From an uncultured Coriobacteriia bacterium (GTDB lineage Bacteria > Actinomycetota > Coriobacteriia > Coriobacteriales > QAMH01), in contig CATLBX010000003.1 of NCBI GenBank assembly GCA_949879855.1, positions 1 through 41,067 of the forward strand: 41,067 bases of DNA, given 5' to 3'. Position numbers and translations under genes: made by a program. This document shows positions 21,826-41,067 of the stretch, piece after piece. Within the stretch, counting starts at the first letter, position 1; each line of letters begins with the position of its first letter. The notes beneath the pieces were generated by a model. The model was not told where the DNA came from, made no database searches, and was given only the letters and a program-made list of their open reading frames with translations.

Positions 21826-21890
21826 GTCCCTCGAAAGATTTGGTACCCTGTCGAATAACAAACCAATTAACCTTCCGAGAGGATAATGAA

Positions 21891-23156
21891 ATGCCCCAGG
21901 ACATGATAAGCGTCGACGAAGCACGCCAAAGAACGATTGCCCTCGCGAGCGAAGCTCGTTTCAGGACGCCGGTCGAGAAGGTTGACCTGTTCGCTGCCGT
22001 CGGACGTGTTGCCGCAGCAGACCTTTCGAGCGATATCGACGTCGCGCCATTCGACAATACGGCAATGGACGGTTTTGCCGTGGTCGCGTCCACCCTCGCG
22101 GGTGCGAGTGAGGACAGCCCGGTCGAGTTGGACATCGTCGATTGGGTCGGCGCGGGGGTTGTCAGCCAGGTTGTCCTCAAACCCGGCGAGGCGATTCGCA
22201 TCATGACGGGCGGTATCATGCCTGAAGGGGCCGATGCCGTTGTCAAGATAGAGGATACGACCTTCACCGGAGACGGTGGCGTGGGCGAGCGTGTCCGCAT
22301 ATGCGCTCCCGTGACCAAGACGAACGTGCGCAAGGCGGGCGAAGAGGCCAAAGCGGGCGATGTCGTCGTCCGCAAGGGCGAGGTGATTCGCGCCGCGACC
22401 GTCGGTTTGCTCGCAAGTACCGGAAACACGACCATCCCCGTGCACGCCCGTCCCAAAGTCGGCGTTATCAGCATCGGTACCGAGCTCGTTGCGCCTCCGG
22501 CAAAGCCCGAACCGGGAAAGATTCGTGATGCGAATGCGTACGTGTTAGGCGCCTACGCGCTTGATCTCGGATGCGAGGTGAACCTATACCCGATTGTCGA
22601 AGATGATGAGACGGCCATTCGCGCCCTGTTCGAGCGGGCGATTGACGAGTGCGACTTCGTCGTTTCGAGCGGCGGGGCGAGCAACGGCGACTTCGATTAC
22701 GCCATCGAGACCATACGCGAGTTGGGCGAAGTCGTCTTCGACTGCGTGAGCCTGAGGCCGGGCAAGGCCCAGGCATTCGGTTGCGTGGGCGACACGCTCG
22801 TCGAAGTTCTTTCGGGTAATCCCGCTGCCGCGGCGGTGGGCTTCCAGCTTTTCGGTCGTCCTGCACTACGCGCCATGCAGGGATTCGCGGAGCTTGACCG
22901 TCCGGTCAGCGACGCCGTTCTTGCGCAGCCGACGCGCAAGAAGGAACCCCGCGCCTTCTATCAGAGGGGACATCTCGAGGTGGGGGAGGATGGCCAGCTG
23001 CTCGCATGCCAGGAGGAAAAGCAGTCGTCCGCCCTGCTGTCGGAGATGAATCGCAGCACCGTGCTCATCGAGCTTCCGCAAGGCACCGGCACGTTCGAAG
23101 CCGGGACGCCGGTCAAGTGCCTCCACTTGGATATTGACGAGGGCGTCGTTATCTAG
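21891..23156 (+). CDS. moeA: Molybdopterin molybdenumtransferase MoeA
   Basis: ATG 21891 follows GAGAGGA. The N-terminus is MPQDMISVDEARQ... Family-typical blocks are present: PFDNTAMDGFAV, IMTGGIMPEGADAVV, ISIGTELV and SSGGASNGDFDY. Confidence 0.85.
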   Translation: MPQDMISVDEARQRTIALASEARFRTPVEKVDLFAAVGRVAAADLSSDIDVAPFDNTAMDGFAVVASTLAGASEDSPVELDIVDWVGAGVVSQVVLKPGEAIRIMTGGIMPEGADAVVKIEDTTFTGDGGVGERVRICAPVTKTNVRKAGEEAKAGDVVVRKGEVIRAATVGLLASTGNTTIPVHARPKVGVISIGTELVAPPAKPEPGKIRDANAYVLGAYALDLGCEVNLYPIVEDDETAIRALFERAIDECDFVVSSGGASNGDFDYAIETIRELGEVVFDCVSLRPGKAQAFGCVGDTLVEVLSGNPAAAAVGFQLFGRPALRAMQGFAELDRPVSDAVLAQPTRKKEPRAFYQRGHLEVGEDGQLLACQEEKQSSALLSEMNRSTVLIELPQGTGTFEAGTPVKCLHLDIDEGVVI

Positions 23157-26521: not shown

Positions 26522-26672
26522 CGGGGGACAGACCCTTCCACATCACCGCAGGCGAAAACCGGGGGACAGACCCCTAATTCCGGTTCCGGTGCTCCATTCG
26601 TGACAGCCGGGGGACAGACCCCTCCATGAACCGATTCCATGAACCGACCCCGCAAACCGGGGGACAGACCCC
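26522..26672 (+). repeat. Cluster of 4 forward mini-hairpin elements between convergent genes
   Basis: Cores are at 26522, 26560, 26609 and 26659. Two copies share the 3' flank CTCCATG(A/G)A. Confidence 0.9.
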
Positions 26673-27684: not shown

Positions 27685-27747
27685 GGGTCTGTCCCCGGAT
27701 TACCAACATCATCCCATGGCGAAGGTCGTGACGAAGGGTCTGTCCCC
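27685..27747 (-). repeat. Two reverse-orientation mini-hairpin elements in the divergent intergenic region
   Basis: GGGTCTGTCCCC occurs at 27685-27696 and at 27736-27747. Confidence 0.9.
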
Positions 27748-27778
27748 TTTTTCCCAGAGAGACATTCAGGAGGAAATC

Positions 27779-29050
27779 GTGATTCGAAACGTCGATGGTG
27801 ATTCCGGCGCAAGCGAAGGTGCGCGGAGGTACCAGAATCCGGTGCTCGTGGGCATCGTCTTGCTCGTATCCGGAATATCGGTGGCGATGATCCAGTACAA
27901 GGTCCCCACCATCATGACGAATCTCATGGGCATCTTCTCGATGGATGCGGCGACGGCCTCGTGGCTCATGTCGATTTTCACGCTCGTGAGCATCTTCGTC
28001 GCGTTGCCCGCGGGTGCCCTTGCACAGCGTTTCGGAGCCAGGCGGATGCTCGTCGTCGCATGCGGCATCGCCATCCTCGGTTCGCTCGTCGGCCTTGTCT
28101 CCGAAACGAGCCCGATGCTCATCGTTTCGCGGGCGATCGAAGGCGCCGCGCTTACCATCCTCACGACATGCGGACCGATTATCGTCCAGCAGAACGTGAG
28201 TCCCGAGAAGGTCGGCACCTCGATGGGCATCTGGGGCATCTGGGGATGTCTCGGGTCCACCGTCGCGGCCGTTCTCACGCCGACCGTTTTCGGCATGTGG
28301 GGATTTGACGGTCTCTGGATCGCGTTTGCCGTGGTCAGCGGCGTTGCGGCTGTCCTCGTCCTGGTCTTTATCCGCAAACCCCCGTCCGCCCCTGCAGCGC
28401 CCGAGGGTCTGTCCCCCAATCGCCATGCGCCCCAGGGGTCTGTCCCCGCAATGTCAGATGGGGCAACGATTGTCGAGAAGCCGCGCTATCGCGACATGTT
28501 CTCCAGGGACATGTTCCTGTTCTTCGGGGCCTTCGTCGTCTACAACATCTGCATGCTCGCGATTCTGGCGTTCGTCCCCACGATTCTGCAGATGCAGGGC
28601 TTCGATCCGACGCTCTCGGGCATCATCAGCACGGCGCCCATGCTGCTCTCGATCATATCATCACCGCTCTTCGGAGTTGTCTCCGACAAGATCGGCCGCA
28701 ACAAGCCACTGCTGATCATCGCCATGCTCGTCATGGGCCCCTGCACGTTTTTGCTCTACACGCAGACTGGGCCGTTGCTCTGGGTGGGCGTCTTTGCGAT
28801 GGGGCTGCTCGGCATGGGCGGCATCGGTCAGTATCTCTCGGGATTCACGAAGCTGCTGCCGAGCCCCGACCTCGCGTCGGTGGGCATGGGAGTGCTTGTC
28901 ACGTTCCAAGGCGTCGGTCAGTTCCTCGGCACGTTTTTCGTGCAGATGCTCCTGGGGCCGCAGCTGACCGAATGGTGGTTTGCCGGCATGGTGCTCATGT
29001 TCCTCGGCTTCGTCGGCACGGCGCTCATCGCCCTGTGCAGGCTACGGTGA
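27779..29050 (+). CDS. MFS transporter
   Basis: I prefer the GTG at 27779, which lies 5 nt after AGGAGGA. The ATG at 27716 has no RBS and would translate through a repeat copy. The protein has 12 predicted hydrophobic segments and a central loop. The stop TGA 29048-29050 lies inside the GGTGACAA extension of the next repeat copy. Confidence 0.8.
   Translation: MIRNVDGDSGASEGARRYQNPVLVGIVLLVSGISVAMIQYKVPTIMTNLMGIFSMDAATASWLMSIFTLVSIFVALPAGALAQRFGARRMLVVACGIAILGSLVGLVSETSPMLIVSRAIEGAALTILTTCGPIIVQQNVSPEKVGTSMGIWGIWGCLGSTVAAVLTPTVFGMWGFDGLWIAFAVVSGVAAVLVLVFIRKPPSAPAAPEGLSPNRHAPQGSVPAMSDGATIVEKPRYRDMFSRDMFLFFGAFVVYNICMLAILAFVPTILQMQGFDPTLSGIISTAPMLLSIISSPLFGVVSDKIGRNKPLLIIAMLVMGPCTFLLYTQTGPLLWVGVFAMGLLGMGGIGQYLSGFTKLLPSPDLASVGMGVLVTFQGVGQFLGTFFVQMLLGPQLTEWWFAGMVLMFLGFVGTALIALCRLR
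28405..28447 (-). repeat. Two reverse-orientation mini-hairpin elements in frame within the MFS central loop
   Basis: GGGTCTGTCCCCC lies at 28405-28417 and GGGGTCTGTCCCC at 28435-28447. They encode ..PEGLSPNRHAPQGSVPAMS.. between the two six-helix halves. Confidence 0.85.
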
Positions 29051-29056
29051 CAACGA

Positions 29057-29190
29057 GGGGACAGACCCCTGGCTGGCCGGACTGACAATGAGGGGACAGA
29101 CCCTCAGTTGGTTAGGCTCCTAGTTAACGGCGCGTGATAAGAAGGGGACAGACCCCCGACTAAACGGACTGGCAATGAGGGGACAGACCC
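29057..29190 (+). repeat. Cluster of 4 forward mini-hairpin elements
   Basis: Cores are at 29057, 29092, 29144 and 29179, with the extensions ggtgacaacga-, actgacaatga-, cgtgataagaa- and actggcaatga-. Confidence 0.9.
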
Positions 29191-29436
29191 TCGGATCGCC
29201 CCCCGATTGCCTCGTTCGCATTTAGACGCTTCTCACCATCCTCTCACCTGCGCGTTTGTCGCACATATCACATGCGTCATACTTTTTATACGATGGTTTC
29301 GCCTTCCCTCAGACGATATATTGAAACCGCAAGTAGGGGGTTGTGTCGATGCATCATGCGCACTGTGCCTCCCGCGGTCGCGGGGAGTCGCAATGCCGTC
29401 GCGCTGGCCATGCCCTTTATCAAAACGCCACTCTCC

Positions 29437-29496: not shown

Positions 29497-31017
29497 ATGG
29501 GGGAAGTAGTACCAGAGCGGGAAGCCGAACAAACCGCGGAGCGCAAGCCAATCGGCGGCAACGAGGCGGATTTCGAGGCCGTCCTCATCGACGGCATACT
29601 CGGCTTCAGCCTTTCTTTCGGCAACGCCATTCTATTGCTGGTCGGGGCGGTGACGCATGCCGGCTCCTTCTTCGACTCCGCGCTCATCACCGTTATCGCC
29701 GCTCTCGTATCCGCGGCCTTCTTCAAGATCGTCCAGCTCAAGACCGATGCAATCTCCCGGCGCCTTCCGCGCGTCGCCTTCGTATGCTGTCACGCGGCGT
29801 GCTTCCTCGTCGCCATCGTCGGCATGTGCCTGGGGCTCCAGTACCTCATCGCCGTAGCCGCGGCGCTTGGCCTGGCCGACACCCTCATCCTCTACGGGCG
29901 ATTTCTCGCGGCACTCGCCCGCAAGGCCCTCATGCTCGTCGTGGATGCGGCCTTTCTGTATCCCGGCATCATGCTGATGGTCATAGTCAACGTGCCGTGG
30001 CCCTATGACACCGTCATCCTCTCGGCCATGGTGCTCGTCACGATCGTCGTCGCCCTCCTCTTCATCCGGCGGAACTATGACTTCGGCGAACTCATCAGCG
30101 CCGCCGATTCGAAGGCGCGCAGCATCAAGGTCAAGGGCAATGTCCATACGCTCTTCCTCGTCGGCTTCATGATCAGCGCGTTCCTGCTCTTCAACTCGCT
30201 GCCGTTTACCATGGAAATATCGAACACCGCGCTTGGCCTGGCCTTCGCGCTTGCGGGCATCGGATCGCTGCTCATGCGCCAAATCAACGAACGCGGCACG
30301 AAGGACGCGCTGCGCAAGACCATGGGACTCGTCTCCCTCGTCCTGCTCCTGCCGCTCATGCTCGTTCCCGGCGAGATACAGCTCGTGTTGCTCGCGTGCT
30401 ATAGCTGTTACGTCGTCCTCGAGACGCTGACCATACTCGACGCGATTGTCGAAACCGTCCGCTTCAACCTCATCGCGGCCATGTGGCTCATCGGCAAGGA
30501 ATGCTCGGTATTCTTTGGCGGTATAGCTGCTGGCGGGGCGATATTCGCGCTGTTTCCCTGGATCACCCGCGTGCTTGGCCCCGAATACGCCATGCTCATC
30601 CTGTGCATCGTGGTGGCCGCATTTTGCGCGTGGCTGCAGATTAAGGTCAACTACCAGGTCTACCCCTACGAACCCATCATCGAGGAGGAGGTTGACGAGG
30701 AGGTGACCGCTCGCATCGAGCGCAACGGTCGCCGCAAGGACCTCTGGCACCAGAAGATCGATGCCGCCTGCGAGCAATACCGCCTGTCACCTCGCGAACG
30801 CGAGATATTGCCCATCCTGTTGAGGGGCCGCGACGCCAAGTACATCATGGACACCTTCTACATCTCGCAATCCACGGCCAAGACGCATATATACAACATC
30901 TACCGCAAGTTCGGCATCCATTCGCGCCAGGAGCTTCTCGACTTCGTCGAGGATATCGAGTTCATGGAGTTCGAGATGCCCGACGAAGCGGAGCACTCAG
31001 ACGATTCCGCGCAATAA
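29497..31017 (+). CDS. Membrane-spanning LuxR-family transcriptional regulator
   Basis: ATG 29497 follows AAGGGGG. About 10 hydrophobic helices are followed by the C-terminal LuxR/GerE HTH: LSPREREILPILLRGRDAKYIMDTFYISQSTAKTHIYNIYRKFGIHSRQELLDFV. Confidence 0.8.
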   Translation: MGEVVPEREAEQTAERKPIGGNEADFEAVLIDGILGFSLSFGNAILLLVGAVTHAGSFFDSALITVIAALVSAAFFKIVQLKTDAISRRLPRVAFVCCHAACFLVAIVGMCLGLQYLIAVAAALGLADTLILYGRFLAALARKALMLVVDAAFLYPGIMLMVIVNVPWPYDTVILSAMVLVTIVVALLFIRRNYDFGELISAADSKARSIKVKGNVHTLFLVGFMISAFLLFNSLPFTMEISNTALGLAFALAGIGSLLMRQINERGTKDALRKTMGLVSLVLLLPLMLVPGEIQLVLLACYSCYVVLETLTILDAIVETVRFNLIAAMWLIGKECSVFFGGIAAGGAIFALFPWITRVLGPEYAMLILCIVVAAFCAWLQIKVNYQVYPYEPIIEEEVDEEVTARIERNGRRKDLWHQKIDAACEQYRLSPREREILPILLRGRDAKYIMDTFYISQSTAKTHIYNIYRKFGIHSRQELLDFVEDIEFMEFEMPDEAEHSDDSAQ

Positions 31018-31035
31018 GGGGTCTGTCCCCTTATT
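31013..31035 (-). repeat. Reverse-orientation element extended to a perfect 9-bp hairpin overlapping the luxR stop codon
   Basis: The hairpin is AATAAGGGG-TCTGT-CCCCTTATT, and the TAA stop is at 31015-31017. It may act as a terminator or RNA-stabilising hairpin, although no clear U-run follows. Confidence 0.6.
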
Positions 31036-31058
31036 CCCTCCTTCGCATTTCCCCCGGT

Positions 31059-31267
31059 TGACAATCGGGGGACAGACCCTCACGCGTCATCTCTTCGCAT
31101 CATGCTGACAGCCGAGGGACAGACCCCGTCATGCCGTCCCTCGCATCCCGGTTGACAATCGGGGGACAGACCCCCACGCGTCATCTCTTCGCATCATGCT
31201 GACAATCGGGGGACAGACCCCGTCGTGTCGTCCCTCGCATCCCGGTTGACAATCGGGGGACAGACCC
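31059..31267 (+). repeat. Higher-order tandem repeat (about 94-nt unit, about 2.3 copies), each unit containing two mini-hairpin elements
   Basis: Cores are at 31067, 31116, 31161, 31208 and 31255. The unit is ccggTTGACAATCGGGGGACAGACCCyCACGCGTCATCTCTTCGCATCATGCTGACAryCGrGGGACAGACCCCGTCrTGyCGTCCCTCGCATC. Confidence 0.9.
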
Positions 31268-31618
31268 TCGCCCGTCATCGATCCTCCCATCGTCCCCCTC
31301 GCCGCCAGCCTTCGCGTTTCGGGATGAGCGCGACGACCAGAGGGGCTGAACGCGCCCCGACGCTTCCAAAACGGCTGCCCGCGAGCCCTCATACCTGAAG
31401 TTCCATGCTCTGAGCAGGGCATTCGAAACCCACTCACAAAATTTCCACATTTGCGGCCAATTCTCGACTCCGAATAATCCCCGGACAATGAAACCCAAGG
31501 ACACGTGCGCTCGCGCGCATGCGCCCCATCCCCGGGTTGTGCGGTCCGGGGCCGCCGGCGCTCTGGAGAGGACGCCGGTTGGGGAGGGAATGTGATATTC
31601 GATGAAAGAGGAGGAGTT

Positions 31619-32857
31619 ATGTCTGATAAAGCACTGGACAAGTCCAAGTGTATAGACGGAAGCTACGGCTGGGTAGTCGTGCTGTTCACCATGTTGGTCG
31701 GCTTCGTGCCCGGCTCCAACATGGCGAAGGCGATTTCGCTCGCGCCAATCGTCTGCATGAACTTCCAGATCAACGAGGCCACGTTCGGCCTGATCGTCGC
31801 GTCTTTCTACATTATGGGCTTCATCATGGCGTTCCCCACCACGGGCCTCGTCAACAAGCTCGGCATGAAGGGTTCCGTCGCTATTGCCGTCGGCTGCGGC
31901 ATCATTGGCTCCATCATGGGTGCCATGGCCGGCACGAACCTCACGGTCTTCGTCATCAGCCGCGTCGTCGAGGGTGCATCCTTCGGCATCATGGGCGTCG
32001 TGGGCGCATCGTCCATCGGCCCCTGGTTCTCGCCCAAGAAGCGCTCGCTCCCGCTGTCCATCTGGTCCATGTGGGTCGCCGTCTGCATGTGCGTCTGCCC
32101 GATTCTCTTTGGCTGGCTCAACGAGTCCATGGGCGTTGACATGGCGGGCATCTGGTGGGGCACCGCCGTGTACGACCTCGTCGTCGGCATCCTGTTCATC
32201 CTGTTCTACCGTCGTCCGGCCGACCTCGACGCCGTCGAGAACGCCGAGGATCCCACCGGCACCAAGAAGGCGAGCATCTCGCGCGCCCTCAAGAGCCCGA
32301 TGCTCTGGGCACTCGCCCTCATCTTCCTGTTCGACGAGGCCGCCTTCATGGCCATCAACGGCTTCATCGTCCAGTACCTCACCACGCAGCTTGATGCGTC
32401 GCTCGTCCTGGCAAACGCCATCTTCTCGCTGTTCGGCCTCATGGGCGCTCTGACGCCGCCCATCTCCGGTTGGATCACGCAGAAGTGGAACAACCACCGC
32501 TGGGTGCTGCTCGTCGGCCTCTTCATAGCGGTCATCTACACGGCCCTGGTCTTCCAGCTGCAAGACCCGATGCTGTACTACCCGCTGTCCATCCTCGCCG
32601 GCATCGTCGGCGGCGCGGTCCCGTCCATCATCTGGCAGTTCACGCCCAACACCGTCGAGGACGCCGACATTCCGGCGGCCAACGCCTTCATGGCGTTCAC
32701 CCAGAACATCGGCATGACGATCGGTGCCCTCATCATCGGCAACGCCATCGTCATGTGGGGTTGGGGCATGGGTTCGCTCATCGGCATGGTGCCGTTGTAC
32801 ATCATCTGCCTCATCATCTACTTCGCCTTCGGCGTTCAGAAGAAGCTCAAGCTCTAG
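31619..32857 (+). CDS. MFS transporter
   Basis: ATG 31619 follows GAGGAGGAG. The 412-aa protein has about 12 hydrophobic helices. The longer ORF start at 31505 lacks an RBS and is Arg/Gly-rich. Confidence 0.8.
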   Translation: MSDKALDKSKCIDGSYGWVVVLFTMLVGFVPGSNMAKAISLAPIVCMNFQINEATFGLIVASFYIMGFIMAFPTTGLVNKLGMKGSVAIAVGCGIIGSIMGAMAGTNLTVFVISRVVEGASFGIMGVVGASSIGPWFSPKKRSLPLSIWSMWVAVCMCVCPILFGWLNESMGVDMAGIWWGTAVYDLVVGILFILFYRRPADLDAVENAEDPTGTKKASISRALKSPMLWALALIFLFDEAAFMAINGFIVQYLTTQLDASLVLANAIFSLFGLMGALTPPISGWITQKWNNHRWVLLVGLFIAVIYTALVFQLQDPMLYYPLSILAGIVGGAVPSIIWQFTPNTVEDADIPAANAFMAFTQNIGMTIGALIIGNAIVMWGWGMGSLIGMVPLYIICLIIYFAFGVQKKLKL

Positions 32858-32872
32858 CCGCTTCGCGCACGA

Positions 32873-32920
32873 AGGATGCGTCGTCTTTCATGGCGGCGCA
32901 TCCTCGCGCGCGTTCTTTTG
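32873..32920 (+). terminator. Candidate rho-independent terminator after the MFS gene
   Basis: The stem AGGATGCG (32873-32880) pairs with CGCATCCT (32897-32904) and can be extended inward with G-U pairs. It is followed by gcgcgcgTTCTTTT. Confidence 0.5.
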
Positions 32921-33237
32921 CCCTTTGCGCGACGTGAACGGGGACTTGAAAACCGTCGTGTAAATCCCAAGGTCACAGGCACTTTTTCCTGTGCCGTCAG
33001 ACGCGAGGTACGAGGGTATTTTGCGAGGGGTCCACGATTTCCGCACCTGTGTACGATTCTCAACTCGCGCACCTGAGCCCTAGTTTGTACGTGCCGCAAT
33101 CCCTCGGCGGCACCGAAATGTCTCGAGTTCGTATTCCTCGAGTTGACATGAGCATTCGGCTCAAAGGGACGTCTTCCTCGCACAACGGCATGTCGCCGTG
33201 GAAGAACGCCCCGGCTCTTTTGAAAGGAGAGGCGCGT

Positions 33238-33450
33238 ATGTGTTTCAGACCCGCAAGTTTCGAGTCCGAAGGTGACAACCCCTATTTCGTTCCCGGCGAA
33301 GAAGATGCTGGCGTACCTGGCGCTCCCGGAGCACCGGGCGCACCTGGAGCCCCTGGCGCTCCCGGCGCACCTGTAGCCCCCGGCGCACCTGCCGCACCGG
33401 GCGCACCTGCTGCTCCCGGCGCCCCGTCCGCACCGGGCCAGCCGTCCTAA
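33238..33450 (+). CDS. Candidate 70-aa micro-protein with a collagen-like (G/x)AP triplet repeat
   Basis: ATG 33238 lies 5-6 nt after AAAGGAGAGG. The sequence is MCFRPASFESEGDNPYFVPGEEDAGVP(GAP)6 VAP GAP AAP GAP AAP GAP SAP GQPS. The identical aa triplets use varied synonymous codons. The gene lies 108 nt upstream of the molybdoenzyme gene. Confidence 0.45.
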   Translation: MCFRPASFESEGDNPYFVPGEEDAGVPGAPGAPGAPGAPGAPGAPVAPGAPAAPGAPAAPGAPSAPGQPS

Positions 33451-33558
33451 AGCCAGGGCAAGGTGCCGGTTCGCGCCGGCGGGAGTGTCCTTGCCAGACG
33501 ACTGGATCACGAACGCAAAGTGCAATGCAGGTTGAGAGAGAAGAGGAAAGGAAAGAGC

Positions 33559-35898
33559 ATGAAGATTTTCAAAGGTCAGGGCACTGCCGATCTTGGCAAG
33601 CCATGGCGCTTCGAAGAAGACGGCCTCACCGTCACCCGTGGCTGCGCATGGTCTCCCCCGGGATGCCACCCCACCGGATGCGGCATCAAGACCTATGTGA
33701 ATTCCAACGGCGAGCTCGTGCGCGTCGAAGGTGACGAGAACCATCCCATCACCAACGGCCGCCTCTGCGTCCGCTGCCTGACCATCCGCGATTACGTCTA
33801 TAACCCCGACCGTGTGCTCTACCCCATGAAGCGCGCCCGCGAGGACCGTGGCAAGAACAAGTGGGAGCGCATCACCTGGGACGAGGCCTACGACACCATC
33901 GCCGAGAAGGTCAAGTACTTCAAGGACAAGTACGGTGCCGAGTCCATCCTGGTCATGGGTGGCACCGGCCGCGAGGGTGGCCCCATGCTTCCGGCCTACG
34001 CCCATGCATGCCTGGGTACTCCCAACGCCTGCTACACGCAGTCCGGCTACTCCTGCTACATCCCGCGCGTCGCGGGTACCACCTACGTCATGGGCGCCAC
34101 CTATCCCGAGATGGACTACGCGGGCGGCCTACCCGGACGCTATGACGACCCGATGTTCAAGCTTCCCGAGCTCATCGTCTTCTGGGGCAAGGAGCCCCTG
34201 CCGTCCAATGGCGACGGTCTGTTCGGCCACGCTGCCATCGACATGATGCGCCGCGGCTCCAAGCTCATGTCCATCGACCCGCGCGTCAACTGGGTATCGA
34301 CCCGCGCCGACTGGCATCTGCGCCTGCGTCCCGGCACCGACGCCGCCCTCGGCATGGCCATGCTCAACGTGATCATCGAGGAGGACCTCTACGACCACGA
34401 CTTCGTGGACAAGTGGTGCTACGGCTTCGACCAGCTCGCCGAGCGCGTCAAGACCATGCCCGCCGAGAAGGCCGCCGAGATCTGCGGTCTCGACGCCGGT
34501 GAGATCCGCGAGGCCGCCCGCGTCTACGCCGCGGCCAAGCCCGCCCAGATCGCCTGGGGTCTGGCCATCGACCAGAAGTCCAACGGCGTCCAGGCCGGTC
34601 ACTGCATCATGGCCCTCGAGGCCATCACGGGCAACATCGACGTGCCTGGCGGCCAGCTCATCGGTGACGTCAACGACGGTCTCGAGCTCGGCTTCGGCTG
34701 GAACAACCTCGGCCCGGAGCTCCAGAGCAAGATCCTCGGCATCAAGGAGTACCCGGCCTACGTCGGCCTCGTCCTCAACGCGCAGTGCGACATGGTGCTC
34801 GACGCGCTCGAGGCGGGCGACGACGCCAAGTACTACCCGTTCAAGATGGGCGTCTTCGAGGACACGAACTTCCTGGCCGGCACCTGCGCCGCCCAGCCCA
34901 AGCGCTGGCATGACGCCATGGTCAAGAACCTCGAGTGGTGCTTCGGTATCGACGTGTGGATGACCCCGACGATTCAGGCCACCTGCGAGATCTTCCTCCC
35001 GCTGTCCTCGACCGTCGAGCATGACACCGTCGTGTACACGCACTATGGTGCCTCGCCGATCATGGCCGGTGCCGTCAACAAGTCCATCACCGTGGGCGAT
35101 TGCAAGGGCGACTGCGAGATCTTCTACGAGCTCGGCCTGCGCTGCATGCCCATCAACTTCGAGAAGTACAAGGACTACTACGACTTCCTGGCCGACTATC
35201 GCCTCGCCTACAAGAGGACCTTCGAGGAGCTACGCGAGGAGGTCGTGCACCAGAAGACCGAGATGTGCGGTTACTACAAGTACGAGTCCGGCCGCCTGCG
35301 TCCCGACGGCATGCCCGGCTTCAACACGCCCACCGGCCGCGTCGAGCTCTACTCGACGATGTTCCGCCAGTTCGGCGAGGATCCGCTGCCGTACTACGAG
35401 GAGCCGCAGTTCTCGCCGGTCTCCACACCCGACAAGATGGAGGAGTATCCCTTCGTCCTCACCACGGGTGCCCGCACCTACTGCTACTTCCATTCCGAGG
35501 GCAAGCAGATTCCGTACCTGCGCGAGATGAACCCCGATCCGCTGATCGAGATCAATCCCGAGGACGCCCTCAAGCACGGCATCGCCGACGGCCAGTGGGT
35601 CGAGGTCGCGAGCCCGTTTGGCAAGTGTGTCCTCAAGGCCAAGGTCTCCCAGATCGTGAAGCCGGGCGTCGTGCACGCGCAGCACGGCTTCTGGTTCCCC
35701 GAGAAGGATCCCGAGGAGCCCAGCCTGTACGAGGTGTGGCGTTCCAACATCAACGAGCGTATCCCGCACTTCATGGTGGGCAAGCTCGGATTCGGCGCGC
35801 CGTTCAAGTGCCTCATCTGCAGCGTGAAGCCGGTGTCGGAGAACTACGACACCGACATGATGGAGGTTTGGGACCACTTCGGAAAGTTGGTGATCTAG
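33559..35898 (+). CDS. Molybdopterin (bis-MGD) oxidoreductase catalytic subunit, acetylene-hydratase-like clade, no signal peptide
   Basis: ATG 33559 follows GAGGAAAGGAAAGAG. The N-terminal 4-Cys FS0 motif is C-x6-C-x4-C-x28-C (GCAWSPPGCHPTGCG...GRLCVRC). MGD-binding blocks are present: GGTGREGG, IDPRVNW and LRPGTDAAL. A C-terminal molydop-binding block reads PFVLTTGAR..YFHSE. There is no RR twin-arginine motif. Confidence 0.85.
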   Translation: MKIFKGQGTADLGKPWRFEEDGLTVTRGCAWSPPGCHPTGCGIKTYVNSNGELVRVEGDENHPITNGRLCVRCLTIRDYVYNPDRVLYPMKRAREDRGKNKWERITWDEAYDTIAEKVKYFKDKYGAESILVMGGTGREGGPMLPAYAHACLGTPNACYTQSGYSCYIPRVAGTTYVMGATYPEMDYAGGLPGRYDDPMFKLPELIVFWGKEPLPSNGDGLFGHAAIDMMRRGSKLMSIDPRVNWVSTRADWHLRLRPGTDAALGMAMLNVIIEEDLYDHDFVDKWCYGFDQLAERVKTMPAEKAAEICGLDAGEIREAARVYAAAKPAQIAWGLAIDQKSNGVQAGHCIMALEAITGNIDVPGGQLIGDVNDGLELGFGWNNLGPELQSKILGIKEYPAYVGLVLNAQCDMVLDALEAGDDAKYYPFKMGVFEDTNFLAGTCAAQPKRWHDAMVKNLEWCFGIDVWMTPTIQATCEIFLPLSSTVEHDTVVYTHYGASPIMAGAVNKSITVGDCKGDCEIFYELGLRCMPINFEKYKDYYDFLADYRLAYKRTFEELREEVVHQKTEMCGYYKYESGRLRPDGMPGFNTPTGRVELYSTMFRQFGEDPLPYYEEPQFSPVSTPDKMEEYPFVLTTGARTYCYFHSEGKQIPYLREMNPDPLIEINPEDALKHGIADGQWVEVASPFGKCVLKAKVSQIVKPGVVHAQHGFWFPEKDPEEPSLYEVWRSNINERIPHFMVGKLGFGAPFKCLICSVKPVSENYDTDMMEVWDHFGKLVI

Positions 35899-36246
35899 AT
35901 GACGGCCTACGGTCTGCTTATCGATTACGAGTTCTGCACGGGCTGCCAGTCTTGCGAGGTCGCGTGCAAGGAGATTCACAACATCCCCGTGGGGCAGTGG
36001 GGCATCCGCGTGCTTGACGATGGTCCCTGGGAGTGCTCGGACGGCAAGTTCAACTGGAACAAGATTCCGACCCCGACGCGCCTGTGCGACCTGTGCGTCG
36101 AGCGCACGGACAAGGGCCAGCAGCCCTTCTGCGTGCATCACTGCCTGGCCGGCGTCATGCAGTGGGGCACGGTCGAGGACCTTGCCAAGGAGCTCGAGGA
36201 GAAGCCCAACCAGGTGCTTTTCGTGCCCAAGCCCTACCAGTACTAG
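35899..36246 (+). CDS. 4Fe-4S ferredoxin-type small subunit
   Basis: The ATG abuts the upstream stop (TAGATG). The protein carries CTGCQSCEVAC plus CDLC...CVHHC cysteine clusters. It is 115 aa long. Confidence 0.8.
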   Translation: MTAYGLLIDYEFCTGCQSCEVACKEIHNIPVGQWGIRVLDDGPWECSDGKFNWNKIPTPTRLCDLCVERTDKGQQPFCVHHCLAGVMQWGTVEDLAKELEEKPNQVLFVPKPYQY

Positions 36247-36287
36247 CGGGAAGACGGCGTCTCGACCGAGGCGCGCGGGTGACAGGC

Positions 36288-36412
36288 GGGGGACAGACCC
36301 TCACGCATCACGAACGACGCGGTTGGCAAGAAGGGGACAGACCCTTTCACGAGAAAGCGGGGGACAGACCCCTTCGCGCCAACCGCAGGTGAGAAAGAGG
36401 GGACAGACCCCC
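36288..36412 (+). repeat. Cluster of 4 forward mini-hairpin elements
   Basis: Cores are at 36288, 36333, 36359 and 36399. Confidence 0.9.
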
Positions 36413-36449
36413 GCGCGTCATCCGCGAAGCGAGCGAGGATGGAATTTCG

Positions 36450-37157
36450 ATGGACCAGCAGGCTCTGATGCAGCAAACCGAAGACAGGTGCGATAACTAC
36501 GCGATGCTCTCGCGCCTGTTCAGAAGCGAGCTCGACCGCGAGCTCATCGCCGATCTCGTCGAAAGCCCGGCCGCCGAGCCGACGGGCAACACGCACTTCG
36601 ACTCGGGCTACGCACGCCTCCGCTCGTACCTTGACGCCGTCGACGACCTTGATCGTGCCAAGTCGGCGCTAGCGATCGACTACTGCCTCGCGTTCCTCGG
36701 CTACGGGGTCGACCCCGAGAAGGCGGACGAGGCCGGCAGGAATGCCGCCTATCCGTACGAGTCGATCTACCGTACGGGCGCCAAGTCGCTCGGCGGCGAC
36801 CACTGCGCCGAGGTGTCCGACGTGTTCCGCTCCTGCATGTTCATGCCCACCCGCGACCGACTCATCGCCGAGGACCACATCGCGTGCGAGCTCGAGTTCA
36901 TGCAGTTCATGGCCAACGGCGAGCTCGTCGCCCTGCACGATGGCGAACTTGCGGTCGTGCGCGGGACGCAGAAGAAGGAGCTCGAGTTTCTCGAGGGCCA
37001 TCTGCTCGCGTGGGCGGAGAGCTTCAGGCAGGCGGTGGAGCAGTTCGCCGAGACGGACTTCTACGTCGGCTTGCTCGAGATGACGCAGGGCTGGCTTGAA
37101 CTGGACGCGGAGTACCTGCGCGAGGCATGCGCGGAAGAAGGGGAGGATGCATCATGA
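36450..37157 (+). CDS. TorD/DmsD/NarJ-family molybdoenzyme maturation chaperone
   Basis: Family hallmarks are present: YAMLSRLFRSELD near the N-terminus, and the AEDHIACELEFMQFM block (E.DH...ELEFM). Confidence 0.75.
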   Translation: MDQQALMQQTEDRCDNYAMLSRLFRSELDRELIADLVESPAAEPTGNTHFDSGYARLRSYLDAVDDLDRAKSALAIDYCLAFLGYGVDPEKADEAGRNAAYPYESIYRTGAKSLGGDHCAEVSDVFRSCMFMPTRDRLIAEDHIACELEFMQFMANGELVALHDGELAVVRGTQKKELEFLEGHLLAWAESFRQAVEQFAETDFYVGLLEMTQGWLELDAEYLREACAEEGEDAS

Positions 37158-37474
37158 CGACCGATCACGGCCCGGACGGGCGTAACTGGAACAAGAACGA
37201 GGTCGAGTATGACCTTGGCGTCGCCGGTCCCGGCCAGAGCATCGTCATCACCATCACCCGTTCCGTCGCGGTCAAGATCATGGACCACGACAGCTACGAG
37301 CTCTACAAGGCGGGCGAGGACTGCAAGGCCTTTTCAGGCCAGCTCACCTCGTCACCGTACCGGTTCAAGCTGCCGCGCGAGGCACGATGGCACGTGATCA
37401 TCAACCCCCACACCTATTCGGGCACCGCCGAATTCAACGTCCGTCTCATTGACGACGAGGTGCTCGACGGCTAG
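37154..37474 (+). CDS. DUF1883-like small protein
   Basis: The start overlaps the chaperone stop (ATGA at 37154-37157) and is preceded by GGGAGGA. The pattern YDLG..G.G..V.I......V.IMD...Y..YK.G....F.G....SPY.F.LP....WHVII matches my memory of DUF1883. Confidence 0.65.
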   Translation: MTTDHGPDGRNWNKNEVEYDLGVAGPGQSIVITITRSVAVKIMDHDSYELYKAGEDCKAFSGQLTSSPYRFKLPREARWHVIINPHTYSGTAEFNVRLIDDEVLDG

Positions 37475-37484
37475 GGGACGAAGC

Positions 37485-37570
37485 GGGGGACGGACCCTCG
37501 ATCACCGTCGGTGACAAAGAGGGGACAGACCCCCATCGATCGCCGCCGGTGACAAGCAGGGGACAGACCC
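37485..37570 (+). repeat. One degenerate and two intact forward mini-hairpin elements
   Basis: GGGGGACGGACCC at 37485 is degenerate. ggtgacaaagaGGGGACAGACCCCC is at 37521 and ccgccggtgacaagcaGGGGACAGACCC is at 37559. Confidence 0.85.
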
Positions 37571-37660
37571 TCGGCTTGGACCCTTGATTTGCAATTTGGT
37601 TCGTACGGCGCGGCCACGAGGAAAGGCCGGGCCGTTAAGAAGGAGAAGGAGAGTGAAGCA

Positions 37661-40027
37661 ATGGAGTTAAGTGATTACAAGCCAGCTCCAGTAGTGAAGC
37701 TGGACAGCCTTTCCGACGTCAACGACATCGGAAAGCCCTGGCGCTACGAGGACGGCGACTACACCGTCACCCGCACCTGCCCGTGGTCACCCCCGGGATG
37801 CCATCCGGTAGGTTGCGGTCTCAAGCTCTACGTCAACGAGGACGGTAGGCTCGAGCACGTCGAGGGCGACGAGAACCATCCCGTCACCCAGGGTCGCCTG
37901 TGCCCGAGGTGCATCACGCTGAAGGACTACGTCTACAGCCCCGCCCGCATCCTCACCCCGATGAAGCGCGACCGTGCCGAGCGCGGCAACGCCGACGCCT
38001 GGGAGGAGTGCTCCTGGGACGAGGCGTTCGCCATCATCAAGGAGAACTACGAGCGCATCGTCGACCAGTACGGCCCCGAGTCCATCATCGGCATGTCCGG
38101 CACCGGCCGCGAGGGCGGTACCATGTCGCTGTATCCCACCATGGTCTTCGGCACGCCCAACTACTGCTACATGCAGTCCGGTTACGCCTGCTACACCCCG
38201 CGCCTGGCGGCAGCCGCCTACATCACCGGCTCCACCTACTCCGAGTGGGACTACGCCGGCGCCCTGCCCGATCGCTGGGATGACGAGCGCTACACCCTGA
38301 CCGAGGTTCTGGTCATGTGGGGCAAGGCTCCGCTCGAGTCCAACCCCGACGGCTTCTTCGGCCATGCGGTCGTCGACGCCATGCGCCGCGGCACGCGCCT
38401 CATCCAGATCGACCCGCGCGTCAACTGGCTGTCCGCCCGCGCCGACATCTTCATCCAGCTGCGCGCCGGCACGGACACCGCCCTGGCCATGGCCATGCTC
38501 GACATCATCATCAAGGAAGACCTCTACGACCACGAGTTCGTCGAGTACTGGTGCTACGGCTTCGAGCAGCTCGCCGAGCGCGTCGCCACGATGCCCGCCG
38601 AGAAGGCCGCCGAGATCTGCCAGGTTCCCGTCGAGAAGATCTACGCCGCGGCCCGCATGTACGCGAAGGCCAAGCCGGCTGCCATCATGTGGGGTCTGGC
38701 CGTCGACCAGAAGACCGACGGTATGCAGAACAGCCAGTGCATCATCGCGCTGCAGGCCATCACCGGCAACTTCGACCGCCCGGGCGGCCAGCTCGTCCCC
38801 GGTGCCGACGCCGGCCACAACGAGCTCGGCTTCGGCTACAAAGAGTGCATCCCCGACGAGCTCTTCCAGAAGATGATCGGCATGGACCAGTACCCCGCGT
38901 ACTGCAACATGATCCTCAACTCGCAGGTCGACCTCATGCTCGAGTGCCTCGAGACCGACAAGCCCTATCCCATCCGCATGGGCTTCTACATGGCCTCCAA
39001 CCCGCTGTCGAACACCTCGATGGAGCCCAAGCGCTGGCACGACGCCCTGTGCAAGTCGCTGGAGTTCTGCATTGGCATCGACCTGTTCATGAACGCCTCC
39101 ATCCAGGCCACCTGCGACATCTTCCTGCCGATCGCGACCACCGCCGAGCGCGAGGGCACCGTGTTCACGCACTACGCGCCCTGCACGGTCACGGCCGGCT
39201 TCATGCACAAGGCCATCGACTGTGGCGGTCTGCCCTCCGACATGGAGCTCGCCTATCGCCTGGGCAAGTACCTGCATCCGGAGCGCTTCTCCAAGTGGGC
39301 TAACGAGCACGAGCTCGTCGAGGCCTTCCGTCTCGGTGTCGAGAACCACGGCGAGACCTTCGACGAGGTCTCCAAGTGCGTCGTCGCCCAGGTGCCCATC
39401 GAGTACTACAAGTACGAGAAGGGCCTGCTGCGCCAGGACGGCCAGGTTGGCTTCGCCACCCCGACGGGCCGCGTCGAGCTGTGGTCGACCGCCTACAACC
39501 AGTTTGGCGAGGACCCGCTGCCGTTCTACCTCGAGCCCGAGTTCAGCCCGGTCTCCAAGCCGGAGCTCGCCGACGAGTATCCGCTCATCCTCACGACCGG
39601 CGCGCGCACCACGGCGTTCTTCCATTCCGAGAACCGCCAGATTCCCTACACGCGCGAGCTCAATCCCGATCCGCTGCTCGAGATCAACCCCAAGACCGCG
39701 CAGGAGAAGGGCATTGCCGACGGCCAGTGGGTGCGTGTCTGGAACATGTTCGGCGAAGCGCTCATGAAGGCCAAGGTCACCGATGCCGTGGACGAGAAGA
39801 CCGTCCATGGTCAGCACGGCTGGTGGTTCCCCGAGGAGGACGGCAGCGAGCCGAACCTCTACGGCACCTTCCGTTCGCAGATCAACAACCTGTGTCCCAA
39901 CGGCCACATGGGCAAGCTCGGATTCGGCGCTCCCAACAAGTGCCTGATCTGCAACGTCGAGCCTGTGAGCGAGTCGTATGACACCGACATGAATCTCATC
40001 TGGGACAAATTCGGAAAGCTGGTGTAG
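37661..40027 (+). CDS. Second molybdopterin (bis-MGD) oxidoreductase catalytic subunit, paralog of 33559-35898, no signal peptide
   Basis: ATG 37661 follows AAGGAGAAGGAGAG. It has the same FS0 motif (TCPWSPPGCHPVGCG...GRLCPRC) and is collinear with the first enzyme throughout. Identity is roughly 55-65% by eye. Confidence 0.85.
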   Translation: MELSDYKPAPVVKLDSLSDVNDIGKPWRYEDGDYTVTRTCPWSPPGCHPVGCGLKLYVNEDGRLEHVEGDENHPVTQGRLCPRCITLKDYVYSPARILTPMKRDRAERGNADAWEECSWDEAFAIIKENYERIVDQYGPESIIGMSGTGREGGTMSLYPTMVFGTPNYCYMQSGYACYTPRLAAAAYITGSTYSEWDYAGALPDRWDDERYTLTEVLVMWGKAPLESNPDGFFGHAVVDAMRRGTRLIQIDPRVNWLSARADIFIQLRAGTDTALAMAMLDIIIKEDLYDHEFVEYWCYGFEQLAERVATMPAEKAAEICQVPVEKIYAAARMYAKAKPAAIMWGLAVDQKTDGMQNSQCIIALQAITGNFDRPGGQLVPGADAGHNELGFGYKECIPDELFQKMIGMDQYPAYCNMILNSQVDLMLECLETDKPYPIRMGFYMASNPLSNTSMEPKRWHDALCKSLEFCIGIDLFMNASIQATCDIFLPIATTAEREGTVFTHYAPCTVTAGFMHKAIDCGGLPSDMELAYRLGKYLHPERFSKWANEHELVEAFRLGVENHGETFDEVSKCVVAQVPIEYYKYEKGLLRQDGQVGFATPTGRVELWSTAYNQFGEDPLPFYLEPEFSPVSKPELADEYPLILTTGARTTAFFHSENRQIPYTRELNPDPLLEINPKTAQEKGIADGQWVRVWNMFGEALMKAKVTDAVDEKTVHGQHGWWFPEEDGSEPNLYGTFRSQINNLCPNGHMGKLGFGAPNKCLICNVEPVSESYDTDMNLIWDKFGKLV

Positions 40028-40029
40028 AT

Positions 40030-40521
40030 ATGGCAACCTACGGACTTCTTATCGATTACGAGTACTGCACGAACTGCGGTTCCTGCCAGGTCTCCTGCAA
40101 GGAGGAGCATGGCTACCCGGTAGGCAAGACGGGCATCGCCGTCCATGCCGACGGCCCGTGGTACATCGACGATGACAACATCAACTTCAACTACTTCCCC
40201 CTGCCGACAGACCTGTGCGACCTGTGCAAGGACCGCACCGAGCGTGGCCGCGAGCCCATTTGCGTGCATCACTGCCTCGCCAACATCCTGTACTACGGCA
40301 CGGTCGAGGAGCTCTCCAAGAAGCTCGAGGAGAAGCCGAAGCAGATGCTCATCGTCCCGCAGTACATGCCGCGCGTGGCCAGGGGCGAGTTCGTCCACCA
40401 GGAGAACGCGACGGACCTGCACAAGGCCGCTGCCATGGACGTCAAGGGCACGGGCGCCTCGACCTTCGGTGCGCACCGCGCTGACGCCAAGGTCGGCGAG
40501 TACGAGGAGGATGCCGTCTAG
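40030..40521 (+). CDS. 4Fe-4S ferredoxin-type small subunit, paralog of 35899-36246 with a C-terminal extension
   Basis: It carries CTNCGSCQVSC plus CDLC...CVHHC. At 163 aa it is longer than the 115-aa paralog. Confidence 0.8.
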   Translation: MATYGLLIDYEYCTNCGSCQVSCKEEHGYPVGKTGIAVHADGPWYIDDDNINFNYFPLPTDLCDLCKDRTERGREPICVHHCLANILYYGTVEELSKKLEEKPKQMLIVPQYMPRVARGEFVHQENATDLHKAAAMDVKGTGASTFGAHRADAKVGEYEEDAV

Positions 40522-40597
40522 GCGGTATCTGACGAGACATGCTCAGAGCCTTTCGAGGGGGCGCCCGAATCGCCGGGTCGCCCCCTTGGGGGTACTT

Positions 40598-40620
40598 GTG
40601 ACAAGCGGGGGACAGACCCT
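40598..40620 (+). repeat. Forward mini-hairpin element (extended form)
   Basis: GTGACAAGCGGGGGACAGACCCT is identical over 23 nt to the in-CDS copy at 15196-15218. Confidence 0.9.
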
Positions 40621-40630
40621 TGGCCACAGT

Positions 40631-40736
40631 CATTTCGAGCGAAGCGAACGCAGTGAGCGAAGTCGAGAAATCTCGACCGAAACGGTGGGGAGAGGATTCC
40701 TCGCCGCGCGGCCTAGCGGTCGCTCCGCTCGAAGTG
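40631..40736. repeat. 106-nt palindromic element: ~20-nt inverted arms enclosing a 66-nt core with an internal hairpin
   Basis: The left arm catttcgagcgaagcgaacg (40631-40650) pairs with cggtcgctccgctcgaagtg (40717-40736) at 18 of 20 positions, including 1 G-U. The inner hairpin is GTCGAG-AAAT-CTCGAC (40662-40677). Confidence 0.6.
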
Positions 40737-40758
40737 GCAAAAGCCAAGGTGAAAAAGA

Positions 40759-40809
40759 GGGGACAGACCCTTGCGTGTCATTGCTGGTGAGAAGAAGGGG
40801 ACAGACCCC
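40759..40809 (+). repeat. Two forward mini-hairpin elements
   Basis: ggtgaaaaagaGGGGACAGACCC is at 40759 and ggtgagaagaaGGGGACAGACCCC is at 40797. Confidence 0.9.
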
Positions 40810-40830
40810 TGACAGTCAGGAGGGGAAGCC

Positions 40831-41067
40831 ATGGAAGACAATCGAGTCGGCAGGGTAGCCTACATCCGCTACGAGGGCGGCATCCTGGGCGAGCGTCACG
40901 TCGACAAGCACCTGGACGAGCCGCTTGCCGTGCGCATCGGCGCGGGTCGCGTGGTCAAGGGCATCGATGATGCCTTGCGCACCATGGAGGTCGGCGAGAG
41001 CGCGACCCTCATCATCCCTCCCGAGGAAGGTTACGGCGATGCCGATCCCAAGCAGGTCAAGTGGTAT
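40831..41067 (+). CDS. FKBP-type peptidyl-prolyl isomerase (SlyD-like), 3'-truncated by the window edge
   Basis: ATG 40831 follows AGGAGGGGAAGCC. My translation is MEDNRVGRVAYIRYEGGILGERHVDKHLDEPLAVRIGAGRVVKGIDDALRTMEVGESATLIIPPEEGYGDADPKQVKWY, which contains the FKBP signature G.G.V.KG.D.AL..M..GE......P.E.GYG. Confidence 0.75.
   Translation, partial: MEDNRVGRVAYIRYEGGILGERHVDKHLDEPLAVRIGAGRVVKGIDDALRTMEVGESATLIIPPEEGYGDADPKQVKWY

Follow-up and report, generated by a model that had tools for sequence, protein, structure and literature searches.

We analyzed a 41,067-nucleotide (nt) window of DNA from an uncultured human-gut Coriobacteriia bacterium (GCA_949879855.1, contig CATLBX010000003.1), in which a module at 29497-40521 encodes two tandem pairs of a catalytic subunit (A1 and A2) of the bis-MGD type (MGD, molybdopterin guanine dinucleotide) and a small iron-sulfur (Fe-S) subunit (B1 and B2). 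Our results suggest, with a probability that we put at about 0.8, that we are looking at the first half of a catechol dehydroxylase island of the Gordonibacter type, which is cytoplasmic and induced by its substrate. It belongs to a known enzyme class and is not a new kind of system. Published Gordonibacter-type catechol dehydroxylases are soluble, lack a twin-arginine (Tat) signal and have a small Fe-S partner, neighbouring MFS transporters and a LuxR activator with 10-12 transmembrane (TM) helices, and those of Gordonibacter pamelaeae are encoded beside a small 4Fe-4S protein, adjoin MFS transporters and have acetylene hydratase as their nearest characterized relative (PMC7028382). The A1/A2 locus combines the same features: three domains, ~750-800 amino acids (aa) and no Tat signal in the catalytic subunits, a small 4Fe-4S partner for each, and MFS transporters and a TM-LuxR regulator beside them. 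A first, sequence-only reading of this DNA had linked it to the catechol dehydroxylases of Eggerthella and Gordonibacter, and the architecture, the network membership and the tree described below all agree with that link.

Domains were assigned with Pfam, solved relatives by a search of all PDB sequences, curated families with NCBIfam and RNAs with Rfam. For comparison we used the loci of G. pamelaeae (L006), Gordonibacter sp. 28C (L013) and an Ellagibacter metagenome-assembled genome (MAG; L005), and an ENA contig of the same species as the window (L076). The LuxR regulator, MFS transporter, two A/B pairs and chaperone named in the sequence-only reading were all found at the coordinates given below, and the listed module genes are all on the + strand in a region with a GC content of about 62-64%. 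The genes of the proposed unit are thus real, but the unit is larger than 29497-40521, with MFS0 upstream and FKBP and more genes downstream. The MFS0 gene, the DUF1883 gene, the 70-aa open reading frame (ORF) at 33238-33450 and the start of the FKBP gene had been overlooked.

27716-29050, + strand: MFS0, MFS transporter; 444-aa ORF, real start maybe slightly downstream; Pfam MFS_1, E 2.4e-45
29497-31017, + strand: membrane LuxR-type regulator; ORF open from 29272, Met76 at 29497 the likely start
31619-32857, + strand: MFS1, MFS transporter; 412 aa from Met39, ORF open from GTG 31505; MFS_1, E 2.4e-43
32995-33075, + strand: conserved non-coding block 5' of A1; GGTAYGAGGG ... TTTCCKCA..GTACGATTCYCA
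33238-33450, + strand: small ORF, 70 aa; MCFRPA..NPYFVPG, then Gly-Ala-Pro repeats (9-nt DNA period); good ribosome-binding site
33559-35898, + strand: A1, bis-MGD catalytic subunit, 779 aa; Pfam Molybdop_Fe4S4, Molybdopterin, Molydop_binding
35899-36246, + strand: B1, small Fe-S subunit, 115 aa; Pfam Fer4_11, Fer4_2
36450-37157, + strand: TorD/NarJ-family maturation chaperone, 235 aa; PF02613, E 1.9e-18
37154-37474, + strand: DUF1883 protein, 106 aa; PF08980, E 1.4e-14; start overlaps the chaperone stop codon
37661-40027, + strand: A2, second bis-MGD catalytic subunit, 788 aa; Pfam: the three domains also found in A1
40030-40521, + strand: B2, small Fe-S subunit, 163 aa; Fer4 family matches; B1-like core and a 48-aa C-terminal tail
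40831-41067, + strand: FKBP-type peptidyl-prolyl isomerase, 5' part; ATG with GGAGGGG ribosome-binding site; first 237 nt, the gene being cut by the window end

Family placement and sequence features of the enzyme subunits

The Pfam matches of A1 and A2 all scored above their cutoffs. The best PDB match of A1 was acetylene hydratase (2e7z; E 1.3e-83, 285 bits, residues 40-717), followed by an FdhF at 164 bits, and pyrogallol hydroxytransferase matched with E 7.5e-15. The block LYDH(D/E)FV..WCYGF(D/E)QLAERV of A1 and A2 aligns with LYDKEFVENWCVGFEELKERV of acetylene hydratase. The likeness to this enzyme that had earlier been proposed is thereby borne out, as no other solved structure came close to 2e7z in score and the block aligns. 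Acetylene hydratase is a tungsten-containing, monomeric, redox-neutral hydratase. The enzyme of Pelobacter acetylenicus (2e7z) shares with A1 and A2 the metal-ligand cysteine and the LYD.EFVE.WC.GFE.L.ERV block, but the identity is only 31-33%, the hydratase has a canonical C-x2-C-x3-C-x29-C motif and there is no partner chain in 2e7z. Judged by their sequences, A1 and A2 are like acetylene hydratase in fold and metal-ligand cysteine, yet are not members of that group.

The source annotations ("anaerobic selenocysteine-containing dehydrogenase", "molybdopterin-dependent oxidoreductase") would suit an ordinary respiratory or formate-type molybdoenzyme, such as a formate dehydrogenase or a reductase of DMSO, TMAO or polysulfide, and the top NCBIfam matches were indeed Fdh-alpha and DmsA. 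Their scores were far below the cutoffs (255 vs. 666 bits and 239 vs. 778 bits, respectively), and no NCBIfam family of known function reached its cutoff. The formate dehydrogenases in PDB scored about 120 bits under acetylene hydratase and aligned over the N-terminal half only. Furthermore, there is no selenocysteine codon in A1 or A2, no gene for a membrane-anchor subunit in the window or on L076 and no Tat signal, and the neighbouring TM-LuxR and MFS genes are unlike a respiratory operon. Taken together, this makes an ordinary respiratory enzyme hidden behind a generic annotation very improbable.

The statement that both catalytic subunits lack a Tat signal was confirmed by reading the N-termini directly (MKIFKGQGTADLGKPW... 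and MELSDYKPAPVV...), which contain neither an RR motif nor a hydrophobic stretch. An alternative upstream start that would add such a signal was not found either: the residues that in-frame starts at GTG 33463 and TTG 37589 would add are charged, show no Tat-like h-region and are not kept in orthologs. A hydropathy scan of A1, A2, B1 and B2 gave zero hydrophobic segments, and A1 and A2 are predicted to be soluble, cytoplasmic proteins.

The two catalytic subunits are 57% identical over 774 aa and the two small subunits 59% over 111 aa, which agrees with the 55-65% earlier estimated by eye. Both A1 and A2 literally contain the unusual N-terminal spacing C-x6-C-x4-C-x28-C that had been pointed out for the FS0 site, as do the further paralogs A3 and A4 (described below) and the orthologs. 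This spacing turned out to be specific to the clade, since its first cysteine is conserved in 84 of 159 relatives while the family-wide set differs: Cys36, Cys41, Cys70 and a fifth cysteine, Cys73 (C-x2 after the fourth), are each present in 144-149 of the 159, and other Gordonibacter-type sequences have C-x3-C-x28-C-x2-C. With the first cysteine in 84 relatives and the fifth in 146, the four cluster-binding residues are ambiguous from sequence. In contrast, Cys166 of A1 (SGYSCYIPR) is invariant (159/159) and corresponds in the alignment to the cysteine that ligates tungsten in acetylene hydratase; it is the probable metal ligand of the catalytic subunits.

The genes for B1 and B2 lie directly 3' of those for A1 and A2. 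The cysteine groups of B1, CxxCxxCxxxC and CxxCx11CxxxC, are sufficient for two [4Fe-4S] clusters, and when compared with four-cluster beta subunits (those of formate dehydrogenase, PsrB and DmsB), B1 matched solely their first and their last group of cysteines, which fits a two-cluster electron-transfer protein. The C-terminal tail of B2 is kept in orthologs, which are 77-83% identical to it over about 161 aa of the protein.

Further support for the assignment came from the published similarity network of catechol dehydroxylases (Bae et al. 2024, PMC11585353, Table S1), where A1-type sequences have the cluster number 8, to which no named enzyme belongs; enzyme names are attached to clusters 2 (El Hcdh), 5 (Dadh), 9 (Gp Hcdh), 22 (Dodh), 27 (Cldh) and 37 (Cadh). 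In addition, C1877_07290 and C1877_07280, the G. pamelaeae orthologs of A1 and A2, are among predicted dehydroxylases (JACS 2025). We also made a neighbour-joining tree with 200 bootstraps, rooted on acetylene hydratase, in which the references were Gp Hcdh, anchored by its primers, and sequences presumed to be Eadh3-, Cldh- and Eldh-like; it was built without Fdh, Psr and Dms outgroups and without Dodh, Gs Vadh and Eadh1/2. A1 to A4, their orthologs and two Adlercreutzia-type sequences formed one clade with 100% bootstrap support, placed inside the Gordonibacter-type group as sister to Gp Hcdh. Within the range of this tree, the phylogeny that had been proposed as a check thus did not move the enzymes into an unrelated clade of known function.

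It could be argued that a member of this clade has another chemistry, acting on non-catechol phenols with resorcinol- or pyrogallol-type rings or performing a redox-neutral hydration or transhydroxylation. The nearest solved enzyme is a hydratase, the clade of A1 to A4 stands apart from every characterized dehydroxylase placed in the tree, and orphan gut dehydroxylations remain, for example the formation of lunularin from dihydroresveratrol (PMC13515148). Nevertheless, each catalytic subunit of A1B1 and A2B2 has a dedicated two-cluster electron-transfer partner, which points to net redox chemistry, while acetylene hydratase, to which the identity is low, has none. Moreover, at least nine characterized Gordonibacter-type members all remove catechol hydroxyls. 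We therefore regard a different chemistry as improbable and keep to catechol dehydroxylation.

The resemblance to the Eggerthella-type enzymes (Dadh, El Hcdh, Cadh) is more distant. They have in common with A1 and A2 the bis-MGD superfamily and clade, the regulation by TM-LuxR proteins and the need for accessory maturation genes. Unlike A1 and A2, they have Tat signals and are larger, and they are accompanied by a full ferredoxin subunit as well as a membrane anchor. For the Hcdh pair, an identity of about 17% has been published between the Eggerthella and the Gordonibacter type.

Orthologs, the larger island and characterized dehydroxylases

A1 is 98-100% identical to proteins of many human-gut MAGs labelled Coriobacteriia, Coriobacteriales or Coriobacteriaceae. 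Syntenic orthologs of both catalytic subunits were found in other genera, with the identities given below, and further orthologs in goat, buffalo, mouse and other MAGs.

G. pamelaeae: A1 87%, A2 86%
Gordonibacter sp. 28C: A1 87%, A2 86%
Ellagibacter MAG: A1 89%, A2 90%
Adlercreutzia sp. Marseille-QA1605: A1 90%, A2 87%

The core order MFS-LuxR-MFS-A1B1-A2B2-FKBP-128-aa protein is kept in four genera as well as in MAGs from ruminants and mouse, whereas the chaperone, DUF1883, A3, A4 and reductase genes are variable among loci. In G. pamelaeae 3C the locus comprises C1877_07290 (A1), C1877_07280 (A2), C1877_07295 (MFS1) and C1877_07300 (regulator); the corresponding accessions are WP_015540504/CBL05161 (A1) and CBL05163 (A2) in strain 7-10-1-b and WP_114600179 and WP_114600177 in Gordonibacter sp. 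28C. The C1877_07290/07280 locus has the same order of MFS, TM-LuxR, MFS, A1, B1, A2, B2, FKBP and 128-aa protein as the source species. Several genes of the source species have no counterpart in the Gordonibacter loci, namely those for the TorD-type chaperone and DUF1883, the Gly-Ala-Pro ORF, A3, A4-B4 and the ene-reductase and short-chain dehydrogenase (SDR) genes, and the Gordonibacter regulator is only 46-51% identical to that of the window.

The chaperone matched the NCBIfam model TorD with 79 bits, which is below the cutoff of that model, and it is found at the same position in the loci of the source species, Adlercreutzia and Ellagibacter. On ENA contigs the DUF1883 protein is annotated at 106 aa and MFS1 at 412 aa, as in the window, and the DUF1883 protein is conserved in L001, L002 and L005. 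Contig L076 contains the full FKBP_C gene followed by a gene for a 128-aa hypothetical protein, both of which are kept after B2 in the Gordonibacter, Adlercreutzia and MAG loci.

Past the window end (L076, 9177-20314), the FKBP and 128-aa protein genes are followed by genes for A3, A4 with its partner B4, two Fe-S flavoenzymes and an SDR. A3 (777 aa) shares 82% identity with A1 and comes without a dedicated Fe-S partner; for A4 (775 aa) the identity to A1 is 69%. The two flavoenzymes, ER1 and ER2 (651 aa each), are of the 2,4-dienoyl-CoA reductase/BaiCD type and flank the SDR gene, and a homolog of ER1 (74%) follows B2 in the Ellagibacter MAG. Ber and the resveratrol reductase were considered as identities of ER1 and ER2 and rejected, since those are fumarate-reductase-like flavoproteins.

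In Gordonibacter sp. 28C, ~3 kb downstream of the A2B2-FKBP genes (L013, 18519-20759), a third dehydroxylase paralog is encoded along with a separate Fe-S partner. Its identity to A1 is about 41%; it falls among the lignan-type enzymes, and the reverse primer published for cldh fits it with 2 mismatches.

To the characterized or presumed dehydroxylases that could be recovered, A1 and A2 are 39-47% identical, and orthology, taken as a shared network cluster (at least ~72% identity) or the same gene in the reference strain, was not found with Gp Hcdh, Dodh, Cldh/(-)-Eddh, (+)-Eldh1/2, Eadh1/2/3 or Gs Vadh. The nearest characterized relative recovered is Gp Hcdh (PMC11585353), a Gordonibacter-type enzyme that is likewise soluble, consists of two subunits and has a TM-LuxR gene beside it. 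It is rejected as the identity of A1 or A2, as quantitative PCR (qPCR) primers locate its gene elsewhere on the same G. pamelaeae contig and the identity is 46% to A1 and 44% to A2; it also belongs to network cluster 9 and not 8. In G. pamelaeae CCUG 55131 the Gp Hcdh gene is at 661-2970 of L087, on the - strand. Gp Hcdh retains the metal-ligand cysteine but lacks all five N-terminal cysteines (...TRSNTWSPPGSHPVGYG...GRVNAMNL...) and thus probably has no need of an FS0 cluster.

The ellagic acid (eam) cluster is an appealing counterpart, with two tandem dehydroxylases, MFS and LuxR genes and A1/A2 orthologs in urolithin producers. Yet the accessions of Eadh1/2 in strain 28C (WP_114602618 and WP_114601864) differ from those of the A1/A2 orthologs, as does that of Eah, and neither in the window nor nearby is there a gene for an Eah-type amidohydrolase/decarboxylase; the eam cluster was therefore rejected. 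A presumed Eadh3-like gene, found via the gene-specific tail of a published cloning primer, is about 40% identical to A1 and A2; together with the Cldh/Eldh-like proxies, which were identified by near-matching primers, the range is 39-43%.

The (+)-Eldh1/2 pair was likewise rejected, as the published identity within the pair is 74% as compared to 57% for A1/A2, and as the qPCR primers for GPA_25810/25800, like those for Gp Hcdh, are absent from the orthologous G. pamelaeae locus (L006). Dodh is in network cluster 22, not 8, and the catalytic orthologs are absent from the list of genes induced by 3,4-dihydroxyphenylacetic acid (DOPAC); Gs Vadh differs by its LysR regulator and its locus tag, and Cldh by its network cluster (27 vs. 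8 for A1). A literature search for the locus tags and accessions of the orthologs found no mention of them, although other papers could hold an assignment, and a review of August 2026 gave no further Gordonibacter enzymes. The earlier statement that the substrates cannot be read from the sequence therefore stands, with no substrate assignment found for the orthologs.

Regulator, spacers and occurrence

The regulator has a GerE/LuxR helix-turn-helix (HTH) domain at residues 505-558 (Pfam E 2.9e-12), and a simple hydropathy scan placed 13 peaks, of which some overlap, in the stretch of residues 104-457, corresponding to about 10-13 hydrophobic segments, so that the number of helices is approximate. 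Orthologs align from about residue 61-84 onward only. This is the same architecture, an N-terminal TM domain and a C-terminal LuxR/GerE HTH, as in the activators of the DadR/HcdR/CadR family, which have 10-12 N-terminal TM helices and switch on dehydroxylase genes in response to the substrate of the enzyme (Nat Commun 2022, PMC9734109). The whole module has one regulator gene. MFS0 lies directly upstream of the LuxR gene in the Gordonibacter, Adlercreutzia, Ellagibacter and MAG loci as well, with 57-68% identity.

The 700-nt spacer 5' of A1 is the sole long spacer of the locus that is free of the repeat described below. Within it, the block at 32995-33075, which includes a TACGAT hexamer, can be aligned between the window, L002, L003, L004 and both Gordonibacter loci (L006 and L013), whereas the DNA on either side is not conserved. 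We consider this block a candidate regulated promoter/operator. A sigma-70 promoter scan gave 2 matches as compared to 2.4 expected, and the Rfam search of the window, including the long leader, found no riboswitch or other RNA family at gathering thresholds. The 70-aa ORF has homologs at the protein level at the same position 5' of A1 in L002, L003, L004, L007 and L018, but none in the Gordonibacter loci. A CPxCG...CPxCG zinc ribbon is present in these homologs and lost from the window copy, the common motif being NPYF(V/I)PG, and the ORF has a weak Pfam Collagen match. It lies in the leader of the dehydroxylase operon, and its product could be regulatory or a chaperone.

The remaining spacers are marked by a repetitive extragenic palindrome (REP)-like repeat, TGACAA-N4-GGGGACAGACCCY, also written TGACAA-N4-GGGGACAGACCC(C/T), the core of which can form a small hairpin. 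With up to 2 mismatches there are 58 copies in the window as compared to 1.9 expected by chance. They occur in tandem groups of 2-6 with a spacing of 35-50 nt in nearly every intergenic spacer, mostly in one orientation, and the copy number varies among strains, with contig joints that skip 87 and 107 nt. The repeat is a genome-wide element and not particular to this locus. The arrays are located at the following positions.

about 19780-19936: REP-like array
about 26524-26672: REP-like array
about 29041-29191: REP-like array
about 31018-31270: REP-like array
about 36273-36413: REP-like array
about 37486-37573: REP-like array
about 40592-40811: REP-like array

About 17 copies are inside a giant ORF of 6584 aa (22-19776, + strand) with Listeria-Bacteroides repeat (Flg_new) domains, the product of which is presumably a giant surface protein. 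An ORF for an IS200-like Y1 transposase (20999-21796) follows, and then a gene for the molybdopterin molybdenumtransferase MoeA (21840-23156), which places a cofactor-biosynthesis gene ~6 kb upstream of the dehydroxylase module.

Occurrence and expression of cluster 8 were taken from the MLVS tables (PMC11585353, Table S2), as partial samples and not cohort statistics. In these samples cluster 8 had non-zero values in 23 of the 32 metagenomes, where it often ranked with the highest clusters, as compared to 3 of 65 metatranscriptomes; SRR6038199 is an example of a metatranscriptome with cluster-8 transcripts. Gp Hcdh, on the other hand, is very highly transcribed in stool metatranscriptomes, where cluster 8 was nearly silent in the part sampled. 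Common DNA with rare transcripts fits a tight substrate-dependent induction, without being proof of it, and suggests for the samples covered that the substrate is rare in that diet. The contigs of one possible metatranscriptome gave only a scattered low coverage.

Proposed function of the two enzyme pairs

In the mechanism that we favour, the LuxR-type activator with its 10-12 TM helices would sense a specific polyphenol-derived catechol and act on a promoter in the 700-nt spacer 5' of A1, and the MFS transporters would carry the substrate in and/or the product out. A1B1 and A2B2 would each be a soluble heterodimer in which the small two-cluster subunit supplies electrons to the bis-MGD molybdenum subunit with its N-terminal Fe-S site, and each heterodimer may reductively strip one hydroxyl from the catechol ring; here the domains and residues are seen in the proteins, while the chemistry is deduced from the family. 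The TorD-type chaperone would aid cofactor insertion and folding, probably together with the DUF1883, FKBP and 128-aa proteins.

The divergence of the paralogs had earlier been read as two substrate specificities. The paralogs have clearly diverged, but the 57% identity may also mean two sites or steps on one scaffold. Two adjacent AB-type dehydroxylases with MFS transporters are found likewise for Eadh1/Eadh2 (PMC12771579) and (+)-Eldh1/2 (PMC11887054), where each enzyme takes a different hydroxyl off one scaffold, and the eam cluster has a single LuxR regulator, as the A1/A2 module does. The single regulator and these one-scaffold tandem pairs make one compound likely for A1 and A2. By analogy, the most probable targets of the two enzymes would be either two positions or two enantiomers of this compound, or two of its successive intermediates, and A3 and A4 perhaps share the same regulator and scaffold too.

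Alternatively, A1 and A2 could serve two unrelated substrates, respond to distinct signals and merely be neighbours. Their identity is well under the 72% that is the isofunctional threshold of the published network, and characterized catechol dehydroxylases are highly substrate-specific. A sole regulator gene for the entire module speaks against this, and the order A1B1-A2B2 is intact in four genera, which argues for joint selection. In E. lenta, moreover, dehydroxylases that are regulated independently each come with a divergent regulator of their own, whereas the single-regulator eam and Eldh1/2 systems act on one scaffold. We thus consider two unrelated substrates unlikely and prefer a common compound for A1 and A2.

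Several points weigh against our interpretation. A1 and A2 are more diverged from each other than (+)-Eldh1 and (+)-Eldh2 are, which leaves the same-scaffold idea weaker than the family assignment. The identity of A1/A2 to the recovered characterized dehydroxylases is only 40-47%, as compared to the 72% threshold, and dehydroxylation, induction and metal content are predictions for A1/A2 and for the Gordonibacter orthologs alike. The genes of the locus do not point to a physiological electron donor. Finally, the table of G. pamelaeae RNA-seq with DOPAC lists the orthologous MFS and regulator genes with small values and does not list the catalytic genes, so that DOPAC is excluded as inducer and no positive lead is obtained.

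A further-reaching idea, which we put forward tentatively, is that the single-regulator island with A1-A4, the two Fe-S flavin ene-reductases and the SDR dismantles one complex dietary polyphenol stepwise. The host would then be a prevalent, uncultured, small-genome gut Coriobacteriia, and A1 and A2 would be site- or enantiomer-selective for the scaffold. If this is true, the island could explain a still-orphan human polyphenol conversion.

Catechol dehydroxylases determine which polyphenol metabolites people are exposed to, and 121 of the 126 published sequence clusters of the class are without a known substrate. Cluster 8, to which A1 belongs, is one of the larger unassigned clusters and is now tied to a conserved module with a regulator, transporters, accessory genes and a candidate promoter. 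The discovery of its substrate is approachable via cultured, tractable relatives, with C1877_07290/07280 of G. pamelaeae as the genes and G. urolithinfaciens as an expression host.

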